From a virus, in the IMG/VR virus record IMGVR_UViG_3300020416_000001, positions 96,001-160,000 of that record: 64,000 bases of DNA; one strand, given 5' to 3'. The translations under genes were made by a program, and so were the position numbers. This document shows, one piece after another, positions 36,824-56,990 of this stretch. The notes under the pieces were generated by a model. That model was given only the letters and a program-made list of their open reading frames with translations. It searched no databases and was not told where the DNA came from. The number at the start of each line of letters is the position of its first letter. Position 1 is the stretch's first letter.

Positions 36824-36853
36824 ATATTTGTAAGGCAAGGACGCTTGTTTTAC

Positions 36854-37023
36854 TGGGAGTGACTGAATAACCCTGTTGGAATTAGGCGGGGTAATGTAAA
36901 CGGTCAGGGGTGGTGCCCGCTTCTTCGGAAGAACTTCTTACCAGAAGGACTGTTGTTGTTATGTACTAATTTTCGCACTAGCGATTCCCATAACTTGTAG
37001 GTATAATGTATTCCTACCTCCCA
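36854..37023 (+). ncRNA. manA RNA: manA-type structured RNA
   Basis: TGGGAGTGACTGAATAA...GGTGGTG...CCTACCTCCCA; ends pair; near mazG. Recognised from recalled consensus. Confidence 0.7.
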
Positions 37024-37045
37024 CCCAACCTTACATATCAGGTCT

Positions 37046-51819: not shown

Positions 51820-51903
51820 GTGTATCGAGAAGTTCATACCGTAACAACCGTTACAAAAAGAAAAATATTGCTAAATAGATCTGGGTATGCTAACATACCT
51901 TTA

Positions 51904-51947
51904 CGTTCATCCTCTCATCAGAGTGGACGCAAGTAAGTCGCGGAACG
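51904..51947 (+). ncRNA. Glutamine riboswitch (Downstream-peptide/glnA class), aptamer 1
   Basis: CGTTCATCC..GGACGCAAG..GGAACG; P1 CGTTC/GAACG. Confidence 0.8.
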
Positions 51948-51950
51948 GAG

Positions 51951-52141
51951 CGTTCATCCCACTATGTTAATGCACTTGTTGTTATTAATGTACACGGACA
52001 TTCATTGTTCGGATGCCCTTGGAATTATCCAAAGAGTCGTGGACAATGATAGACTCAGCAACGCTGAGAAAGTCGAATTGGTACAGGTTATTCAAGAGGC
52101 AACTCCTGACTGTACTTGGGACGCATACGACTGAAGGAACG
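51951..52141 (+). ncRNA. Glutamine riboswitch aptamer 2, split by an internal ORF
   Basis: CGTTCATCCCA ... TGGGACGCATACGACTGAAGGAACG. Confidence 0.7.
51964..52134 (+). CDS. 56-aa ORF nested in aptamer 2 (MLMHLLLLMYTDIHC...CTWDAYD)
   Basis: Open frame; GGAG 14 nt upstream; two Cys; hydrophobic N-terminus. Confidence 0.6.
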   Translation: MLMHLLLLMYTDIHCSDALGIIQRVVDNDRLSNAEKVELVQVIQEATPDCTWDAYD

Positions 52142-52174
52142 GGGCAAAAATCCCTACTACTTTGGAGTAAACCA

Positions 52175-52318
52175 ATGACAACCATTACTTATCGTGGCGT
52201 CAAGTATGACGCTGAGCAGTACAAAGCAAAGGTACTTGCCGAGGCAGATCAAATTCGTAATCACGAAATGATGTACCGTGGAATTAAGGTCGAGCGTAAG
52301 TTCGCCTCCAAGTCCTAA
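52175..52318 (+). CDS. DUF4278-like downstream peptide
   Basis: Two YRG(V/I)K motifs; GGAG RBS. Confidence 0.85.
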   Translation: MTTITYRGVKYDAEQYKAKVLAEADQIRNHEMMYRGIKVERKFASKS

Positions 52319-52339
52319 GCAAGCAAATTTGTTGAGTTT

Positions 52340-52364
52340 AAGACCCTTCACAGGGTCTTTTTTT
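52340..52364 (+). terminator. Rho-independent terminator
   Basis: AGACCCT-TCAC-AGGGTCT + T run. Confidence 0.85.
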
Positions 52365-52408
52365 ATGCTAGGATATATAATACAAGAAATTATGTGAGGT
52401 ACTGCTGA

Positions 52409-54131: not shown

Positions 54132-54205
54132 GGGTCAGTAGCACAGTGGATTAGTGCAACTGCCTTCTAAGCAGTCGGTCGCAGGTTCGAATCCTGCCTG
54201 ACCCG
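54132..54205 (+). tRNA. trnR: tRNA-Arg (UCU)
   Basis: GGGTCAG/CTGACCC acceptor stem; CTGC-CTTCTAA-GCAG anticodon arm; GGTTCGAATCC; CCA not encoded. Confidence 0.95.
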
Positions 54206-56849: not shown

Positions 56850-56892
56850 ATATACTGTTGAATGTTACGGAATGTAAACATTTACATATACT

Positions 56893-56990
56893 TCCTCTCC
56901 GCAAACCGAGACCTATAGGGAGGTTAAACGAGTCTCTAATACCTATCCCCGAGGGTGGGATATGGAATATTACCTTCACTGTTCCCTGCA
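56893..56990 (+). ncRNA. PhotoRC-II-like leader RNA upstream of psbA
   Basis: GAGAC..GTCTC and ATCCC..GGGAT stems in the psbA 5' UTR; boundaries approximate. Confidence 0.6.

Follow-up and report, generated by a model that had tools for sequence, protein, structure and literature searches.

How can an RNA that appears built to sense a metabolite also carry a whole protein-coding gene within it? Riboswitch aptamers are normally viewed as compact non-coding units ahead of genes, and the question is raised by a locus in a 64,000-nucleotide stretch of cyanophage DNA (hereafter, the window), which comes from the IMG/VR record of a T4-like cyanomyovirus, 171,756 bases in length. The locus is flanked by a 2OG-Fe(II) oxygenase gene and talC, and it constitutes a small unit of its own, composed of a promoter-like region, a structured leader, two small open reading frames (ORFs) and a terminator (Table 1). 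An initial annotation had described a compact 5′ element (51904–51947), a GGAG (51947–50), an ORF (51964–52134), the start of a second aptamer (CGTTCATCCCA, 51951–61) with its distant 3′ half (TGGGACGCATACGACTGAAGGAACG, 52117–41), and a DUF4278-like ORF (52175–52318) followed by a terminator; we found all of these elements at those positions. The annotation interpreted them as tandem glutamine riboswitches, the second of which encloses the first ORF. We argue here for a different arrangement, namely a nested fold of two cores, through which glutamine would turn the DUF4278 gene on and the folding of which would exclude translation of the nested gene. To this reading as a whole we assign a probability of roughly 0.6.

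Table 1. Features of the locus in window coordinates. The segments of the RNA are named, in order, a, P2, c, d, e, 3-nt loop, a′, P2′, c′, d′, GAAG and e′.
Feature	Position	Strand	Remarks
Candidate NtcA-type box, GTA-N8-TAC	51841–51854	+	Upstream of the promoter; read in the sequence
Promoter-like region	51868–51896	+	TTGCTA, 17 nt, TAACAT; late-type CTAAATA at 51871–51877
a, outer P1 5′ strand, CGUUC	51904–51908	+	Partner 52137–52141
P2 hairpin of the outer core	51910–51927	+	Four covarying pairs in compact relatives
c, CGC and AAGUA (loop E 5′ strand)	51928–51935	+	Linchpin base C51930 pairs with G52142
d, AGUCG, shared helix 5′ strand (outer-core P3)	51936–51940	+	Partner 52128–52132
e, loop and a′, GAACG-GAG-CGUUC (inner-core P1)	51943–51955	+	Linchpin: G51948 with C52124
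Probable ribosome site of the nested ORF, GGAG	51947–51950	+	In the e/a′ hairpin
P2′ 5′ strand, UCCCA, of the stem closing around the gene	51957–51961	+	Partner 52117–52121
Nested gene, 56 codons	51964–52134	+	PHROG 504; annotated in isolates as 'T4-like GC 430'
P2′ 3′ strand, UGGGA	52117–52121	+	Within codons 52–53 of the nested gene
c′, CGC and AUA, inner-core junction strand	52122–52127	+	Linchpin base C52124
d′, CGACU, shared helix 3′ strand	52128–52132	+	Covariation
Sequestor helix, CUGAAG (52131–52136) with CUUUGG (52160–52165)	52131–52165	+	Encloses a small hairpin, 52141–52155
Stop codon of the nested ORF, UGA	52132–52134	+	
GAAG (loop E 3′ strand), e′ GAACG (outer P1 3′ strand) and linchpin G52142	52133–52142	+	
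DUF4278/YRG-type (IF17-like) small protein gene, 47 codons	52175–52318	+	
Intrinsic terminator	52340–52365	+	8-pair stem (52340–52359) and T run

One fold with two cores

The pairing evidence makes it very probable that 51904–52142 forms one RNA fold, in which two glutamine-I-type cores share a central helix. By its pairings and conserved motifs, the outer core is recognisable as a complete glutamine-I (glnA-type) aptamer, with P1, P2, loop E, P3 and the linchpin. The inner core can be placed within P3, on the other end of the shared d:d′ helix; it is built like a circular permutation of the outer core, and its own P2 (P2′) closes around the 56-codon gene. The inner element (e, the loop, a′, P2′ and c′) reads as a circular permutation because the conserved fold is nested; in the general scheme of segments, c′ is written CGC-AAA, and the window reads CGC and AUA.

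The initial annotation would instead have two independent tandem aptamers, the second with a long loop, of the class that has been called 'pseudo-cooperative' (PMC9481103). In the window, the identical P1 strands permit both sets of pairings, the minimum-energy fold uses the side-by-side P1 helices, and the 5′ element alone gives weak matches to Rfam. As these strands do not differ in sequence, a minimum-energy calculation is unable to decide between the P1 pairings, and nearest-neighbour folding showed no preference for the nested fold. The relatives of the window, however, tell against the side-by-side arrangement in four respects.

First, 54 of 175 unique loci (the total after two further scans for P1 variants) mismatch both side-by-side P1 helices and pair perfectly when nested, a with e′ and e with a′. 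In 45 of these loci, a is CGUUC, e is CAACG, a′ is CGUUG and e′ is GAACG; in the other nine, a is CGUUU, e is CAACG, a′ is CGUUG and e′ is AAACG. One further locus (a CGUUU, e′ AAACG) also favours the nested pairing, and none of the 175 favours the side-by-side one. The outer P1 has five of five pairs in the window, the fifth of which changes jointly from C:G to U:A in 10 relatives, while e and a′ shift together from GAACG/CGUUC to CAACG/CGUUG in the 54. The P1 helices thus covary with the partners exchanged: a:e′ and e:a′ are the helices, not a:e and a′:e′. With these partners, AGUCG/CGACU is therefore P3 of a single outer glutamine-I aptamer; the stem that carries the ORF is part of the inner core.

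Second, the outer linchpin, formed by the third base of c and the base after e′, is C:G in 91 sequences and G:C in 11, with no mismatch among the 102. The first linchpin base therefore covaries with the base that follows the final GAACG and not with the one after the first, and this covariation spans the nested ORF. The inner linchpin, between C52124 and the base after e, is kept as G:C in 100 of 102 sequences.

Third, AAGUA is found only in the first element, which lacks GAAG, and GAAG only in the second, which lacks AGUA. In the window, AAGUA (51931–35) and GAAG (52133–36) stand, at the level of sequence, in the loop E order of the crystallised RNA, and joining the two halves restores the segment order of the crystallised glutamine-I aptamer (PMC5393176). 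Loop E and the one-pair linchpin pseudoknot of this class are known from the crystal structure, the linchpin also from covariation (PMC12510878, PMC6698751).

Fourth, formation of d:d′ leaves a link of one nucleotide between d and e, which is too short to reach the junction, so that e is unable to return to pair with a. We consider it very improbable that the two sets form independent tandem aptamers.

The long-range pairing between AGTCG (51936–40) and CGACT (52128–32), which the initial annotation had suggested as a possible bridge over the ORF, proved to be real: 91.6% of the cells of d:d′ are paired, and compensatory changes occur in three columns. In P2′, 99.5% of the cells are paired, and two columns show compensatory changes (C:G, U:A, U:G) across about 160 nt. 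Slid controls for these two helices gave 22–47% paired, and none of 500 shuffles reached the observed values. The question raised in the annotation, whether pairs covary across the insert, is thus answered by the compensatory changes in P2′, d:d′ and the linchpin. Extended to 8 nt, the d:d′ helix is almost palindromic, its two A·C mismatches being placed symmetrically. In the compact set of relatives, 96.6% are paired and 10 pairs show double changes.

The pocket nucleotides named for this family (PMC6698751) are all present in both cores. The inner core is without loop E, its linchpin G lies in a tight 3-nt loop, and it may fail to bind glutamine.

Detection of the fold by RNA models

Why has a glutamine riboswitch of this form been missed by standard family scans? 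At the gathering threshold, Rfam gave no match at this locus. Below the threshold, matches were confined to 51901–51954 (23.9 bits for Glutamine-II, with a cut-off of 33, and 22 bits for Glutamine, with a cut-off of 35), and at the E-value threshold there was none on the split 3′ half. The Rfam Glutamine model misses the fold of the window because P3 encloses 187 nt and the model cannot span the insert. In a compact relative, the same model aligns across both halves (Infernal, 43.6 bits against a cut-off of 35), taking the first CGUUC and the last GAACG as P1 and placing its P3 on AGU/ACU.

We therefore relied on models made from the relatives themselves. A model built on the nested structure from 12 compact and eight gene-bearing relatives, with the window left out (R2), matched 51902–52144 of the held-out window end to end (72.6 bits, E 6.8e-18) and treated the ORF as an insert in the P2′ hairpin loop. 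A model made from compact relatives only (R1) matched the two halves separately, at 29.5 and 10.7 bits, because its maximum match length is too short. The 64-kb window holds a single copy of the 3′ half and a single copy of the junction, against chance expectations of 0.00 and 0.01.

R2 found no such locus when applied to 141 genomes from the family to which a marine Synechococcus metagenome-assembled genome belongs; with 15 candidates scored per genome this is a weak negative, and the genome of the window itself, used as a positive control, was detected. A scan of genome contigs with the 15-nt junction is uninformative on hosts: it returned chance matches, with one real locus in 120, in a contig that is probably mis-binned phage DNA.

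The nested gene

Is the enclosed ORF a gene? It might be an untranslated, conserved structured RNA extension of the hairpin: Pfam has no match for the protein, and a Foldseek search of the PDB with it returned nothing better than E 1.8, which is not significant. Against this, the interior of the ORF in 26 unique 53-codon relatives varies with a period of three (entropy 1.04, 0.50, 1.45) and with pN 0.34 and pS 0.72, giving a dN/dS of about 0.27. Length differences amount to whole codons, and the frame is open over 49–69 codons at the nested place in about 100 contigs, among the junction matches listed. AlphaFold gives a confident model of the protein, a two-helix hairpin with a conserved Cys pair (pLDDT 82), and the folding z-score of the region is only −1.4. 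An untranslated element is thus very improbable. As judged by this pattern of substitution, the nested gene is real and under purifying selection; the annotation, which had asked for such a test, was right to see a whole ORF within the aptamer stem-loop.

The 3′ end of the gene behaves differently from its interior. The aptamer supplies the nucleotides of its last codons and of its stop codon, as had been noticed from the window alone, and in the 26 relatives the last five codons (UGG GAC GCA AAC GAC) are invariant, including their third positions. Because these codons are frozen, the RNA determines the tail of the protein, W-D-A-N-D. Covariation in P2′ is accompanied by changes in the residue that precedes D, which is W, I, E, Q, R or K.

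The gene is annotated as a CDS in nine isolates, and the PHROG family that it matches is a label without a function. A protein atlas search with the nested protein returned solely unnamed viral clusters, and a word-indexed protein search found two relatives of the window's divergent ORF. A profile comparison of two nested-gene families was weak (probability 32%, E 5e-4) and aligned the Cys-to-Cys span, which is suggestive, and no more than that, of a relationship between the two families.

The GGAG at 51947–50 had been taken as the probable Shine-Dalgarno sequence, and its distribution agrees with this role. Of 126 gene-bearing class-1 relatives, 96 have GAG as the e/a′ loop, which creates a GGAG 10–13 nt upstream of the nested start, and none of seven compact relatives has it; in class-2 relatives, the loop is GAU and no good ribosome site results.

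We also considered a leader-peptide attenuator. No run of regulatory codons was seen in the nested ORF, and we rejected this candidate on the grounds that the ORF encodes a conserved protein, with the dN/dS, Cys pair and helical hairpin given above.

Distribution among cyanophages and the loops as sites for genes

A distant DNA search found the region in 400 phage records; the layout itself is present in more than 200 IMG/VR contigs and in isolates that represent nine cyanophage genera. The nine isolates are S-SSM4, ACG-2014b, S-SSM5, P-RSM1, P-TIM40, P-RSM4, S-SKS1, S-P4 and S-8S55. All nine have the same order: the AAGUA element, GGAACGGAN-CGUUCAUCC, ATG, an annotated CDS of 53–60 codons that ends with GGGACGCAAACGACU-stop, and then AGGAACGG. 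In eight of them, a YRG motif was read in the sequence of the following small ORF; S-SSM5 is outside this count. The junction pattern was found in at least 120 IMG/VR contigs.

In some relatives the second hairpin is compact and contains no ORF, and the split half is therefore an ordinary aptamer part carrying an insert. Compact, gene-free forms are in fact known for both loops, and every RNA feature is kept in them. Conversely, different gene families occupy the same nested-gene loop, the outer P2 loop holds another gene in 37 of 130 relatives, and a homing-endonuclease-like ORF lies in the e/a′ loop of some relatives.

These observations would suit a passenger gene, in which case the double aptamer would control DUF4278 alone, the loops would be permissive slots and the overlap of gene and stem would reflect genome compaction. 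The placement of the gene argues otherwise. In 127 of 155 sequences (82%), the start codon falls at least partly inside the uninterrupted helix of P2′. The stop codon lies within loop E and the sequestor helix. This placement holds across divergent gene families and both loops, and the GGAG in the hairpin loop follows the presence of the gene. Moreover, whatever selection has favoured, a translating ribosome would still unfold P2′, P3 and loop E. We therefore regard a mere passenger as a minority possibility, unlikely but deserving of attention, and continue with the reading in which folding and translation are at odds.

The downstream gene and its probable expression platform

The DUF4278-like ORF matches Pfam DUF4278 at E 2.9e-5 (24.8 bits, just under the cut-off of 25.3) and PHROG 5049 at E 2.8e-24. 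The sequestor helix overlaps its ribosome site (GGAG, 52164–67). One strand, CU(A/G)AAG, consists of the end of d′, the stop codon and loop E; the partner hexamer starts 4–5 nt before the ribosome site. The helix is present in the minimum-energy fold of the window, and all six of its pairs are found in 105 of 121 unique relatives, with the variable pair being A:U in 41, G:C in 37, G:U in 32 and A:C in none; in a control window, six pairs were never reached. The stop codon of the nested gene is thus located in a helix that covaries and that would mask the site where ribosomes bind for the next gene.

How might glutamine act on this arrangement? In the leader of Synechocystis gifB (IF17), glutamine is proposed to melt an inhibitory duplex and so to turn translation on (PMC6212724). 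In the phage RNA, binding of glutamine would lock the nested fold, and the locked fold would take up the loop E strand and thereby leave the DUF4278 ribosome site free. The outcome with glutamine would be an ON switch like that of Synechocystis gifB; by analogy with that leader, glutamine probably turns the DUF4278 gene on. The locked fold would also hide two parts of the nested gene, namely its ribosome site, which lies in the hairpin loop of 3 nt, and its start codon, which lies at the P2′ stem or within it. Without glutamine, the sequestor would form, the DUF4278 gene would be off and the nested gene could be translated.

Conversely, a ribosome on the nested gene would unzip P2′, P3, loop E and the sequestor, and folding and translation would therefore exclude each other. 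Nitrogen sensing and nested-gene translation would compete on one RNA because the stem closes around the gene. The exclusion itself would appear unavoidable from the anatomy of the locus; its direction and size are what we infer. For an antagonism between the glutamine-bound fold and the nested gene, we see about even odds.

A terminating ribosome may, on the other hand, briefly open the downstream ribosome site; should it melt the sequestor, the outcome could be co-expression of the two genes instead of a toggle. The riboswitch would then mainly gate the nested gene, and the two proteins would rise and fall jointly. The position of the nested stop codon (52132–34) within the 5′ strand of the sequestor (52131–36) would fit such coupling, as would the 41 nt that separate the downstream start from the nested stop. 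In compact relatives, however, this sequestor helix is retained with no gene upstream of it, and in some gene families the stop lies about 20 nt earlier, in the 3′ strand of P2′. Coupled co-expression thus appears improbable to us, and we retain mutual exclusion as the preferred reading.

Two cores on one helix would also permit a steeper, cooperative response. We tentatively suggest, as a possibility that is somewhat less likely than the alternatives to it taken together, that the RNA is a two-site cooperative glutamine sensor whose folding is gated by ribosomes on the lodged gene, with low glutamine giving the Cys-pair protein and high glutamine the IF17-like DUF4278 protein.

Relation to known systems

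Homing-endonuclease ORFs are known from the loops of group I introns, and in attenuators with leader peptides translation competes with RNA folding. Like these systems, the locus has an ORF housed in a peripheral loop of an RNA whose fold is functional, and translation would compete with folding on a single transcript. Unlike them, it has an aptamer of a metabolite-binding type and a conserved small protein whose start and stop are built into aptamer helices.

The closest relative is the glutamine-I riboswitch (RF01739), which shares with the locus the CGUUC/GAACG P1, the P2 hairpin, the CG(C/G) junction, AAGUA/GAAG around P3 and the linchpin. In that class, P1 contributes the ligand-contact pairs C1:G and G2:C, and P2 comes immediately after a conserved A. 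As in the gifB leader, the DUF4278 ribosome site would be masked by a duplex with aptamer nucleotides; this function is ascribed to the locus by inference. In contrast to glutamine-I, P3 in the locus is not a hairpin: its 187 nt contain a second, permuted core and a protein gene, and the RNA is phage-borne. The Glutamine-II riboswitch (Downstream-peptide motif, RF01704; PMC6698751) has in common with the locus the nucleotides of the ligand pocket and a CGC junction whose linchpin is C:G, and it too is linked to DUF4278, in marine picocyanobacteria. We rejected identity with this class: the flanking P2 helix is absent, as is a 3′ hairpin with GGAACG in its loop to form a pseudoknot with CGUUC, loop E and P3 are present, and the score of the Glutamine-II model remained well below its cut-off.

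Sherlock 2022 reported 157 doublets, termed pseudo-cooperative, under a tandem criterion of no intervening ORF and a gap of less than 300 nt (PMC9481103). The locus resembles these doublets in having two sets of aptamer consensus elements in a row upstream of one gene, but its sets are interlocked (a:e′, e:a′ and a shared helix) and have a single expression platform; neither a shared helix nor a nested gene is mentioned in that survey. In the tandem glycine riboswitch, two aptamers with one expression platform make contacts with each other, a design that allows cooperative sensing (PMC5066625). The locus likewise has two similar putative ligand-binding cores in one fold with one platform and, as far as can be read from the DNA, two sets of complete pocket nucleotides with one sequestor helix. 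Its cores, however, are nested by strand exchange around a helix, rather than joined by side-by-side tertiary contacts, and a gene lies inside.

Our literature search found no description of a nested or ORF-bearing glutamine riboswitch, and Ames and Breaker 2011 and Ren et al. 2015 may mention nested tandems. Phages were outside the subject of Klähn 2018, and cyanophage genome papers report a single glnA match of about 99 nt. If our reading is correct, genes would here be known for the first time from within a riboswitch aptamer, and because both hairpin loops can carry genes, the design might be a general 'gene slot'. 'Tandem' glutamine riboswitches would then be re-read as one cooperative device, not two independent ones, and the locus would offer a natural system in which metabolite sensing and translation are opposed on the same RNA. 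It would also draw attention to two unstudied small proteins of the phage, of which one is IF17-like; the pair is probably tied to the nitrogen state of the host during infection, the hosts concerned being the ocean's main primary producers. The hypothesis can be tested directly with short RNAs and reporters.

Promoter and transcripts

The promoter-like region is weak in the window, and a scan for consensus promoters made no call there; its −10 falls within a palindrome (51884–99). Relatives have TTGACT-17-TATAAT at the matching place, and among 119 relatives a −10-like hexamer is present in 111 and the palindrome in 97. Of the 119 unique upstream regions, 83 contain an NtcA-type motif, in most cases 57–60 nt before the first CGUUCA.

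As a hint of expression, contigs from one marine metatranscriptome that are identical to the window span 51883–52078 and 52167–52326 without the flanking genes. Such contigs are no proof of transcription, strand, ends or level, and their uncovered parts and their ends are not evidence of any kind. In further metatranscriptome runs, conserved aptamer parts and compact-loop relatives were very abundant. Elsewhere in the window, Rfam identified a manA RNA, a tRNA and PhotoRC-II.

Genes and insertions within the riboswitch

Is the loop that holds the 56-codon ORF the only one in this riboswitch to carry a gene? In 37 of 130 relatives (loci L006, L009 and L014, together with 34 others), the loop of the outer-core P2 is also gene-bearing; in the window itself, P2 is compact. 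The P2-loop genes, which lie about 200-250 nt upstream of the junction, span 61-78 codons and encode products that belong to PHROG 6471 and have a hydrophobic N-terminus and a Cys pair. The start codon falls within the covarying P2 stem, and translation would end either within the 3′ strand of P2 or at the AAG-UAA of loop E, where the stop codon is located. When the alignment of the proteins encoded in one loop was compared with that of the proteins encoded in the other (A3 and A4), a weak Cys-to-Cys match was obtained (hhalign probability 32%, E 5e-4), and the two proteins may be distant paralogues. If so, an aptamer-plus-gene module would have undergone duplication.

A further kind of insertion was found at L263 (2256-2834), where a homing-endonuclease-like ORF of 192 codons, matching PHROG 314 (E 9e-9) and giving no match in a Pfam search, occupies exactly the 3-nt loop that separates e from a'. 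The riboswitch halves are still intact around this ORF, with ~770 nt between them, and the same insertion is present in L309, L317 and L320. Some relatives (L003, L014, L049, L055, L058, L067, L078 and others) also have an additional conserved hairpin (ACGGAUC, a stem and GAAGGUUAA), located between e' and the ribosome site, after the aptamer and ahead of the sequestor 3′ strand.

Putative upstream control region and metatranscriptome contigs

The GTA-N8-TAC motif of the window recurs among relatives: of their 119 unique upstream regions, 83 carry it, usually at 57-60 nt 5′ of the first CGUUCA. This candidate NtcA box suggests that the unit would combine a glutamine signal with a 2-oxoglutarate signal, the latter via NtcA. 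A palindrome like that in the window was observed in 97 of the 119 relatives, and a metatranscriptome contig with an exact match to the window starts at 51883. CTAAATA and the palindrome could constitute a second, late start that yields a 5′ stem-loop, or else an operator.

In the marine metatranscriptome contigs of run X18, word depth was very high for the conserved aptamer parts of relatives (equivalent to 51910-51950 and 52115-52155 of the window), and the high-depth words included compact-loop forms of relatives, in which 51959 is joined to 52119. These depths are consistent with, but do not prove, abundant marine transcripts of this riboswitch family.

Upstream motifs of the riboswitch unit and other structured RNAs in the window
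Feature	Window position	Score	Remark
NtcA-type box (candidate), perfect GTA-N8-TAC	51841-51854		14 nt upstream of -35-like hexamer; read in sequence
Late-type CTAAATA, then palindrome GGTATG-CTAA-CATACC	51871-51899		palindrome encloses -10-like hexamer
manA RNA	36834-37027	127.6 bits	
tRNA	54132-54205	73.1 bits	
PhotoRC-II RNA	56882-56978	64.8 bits
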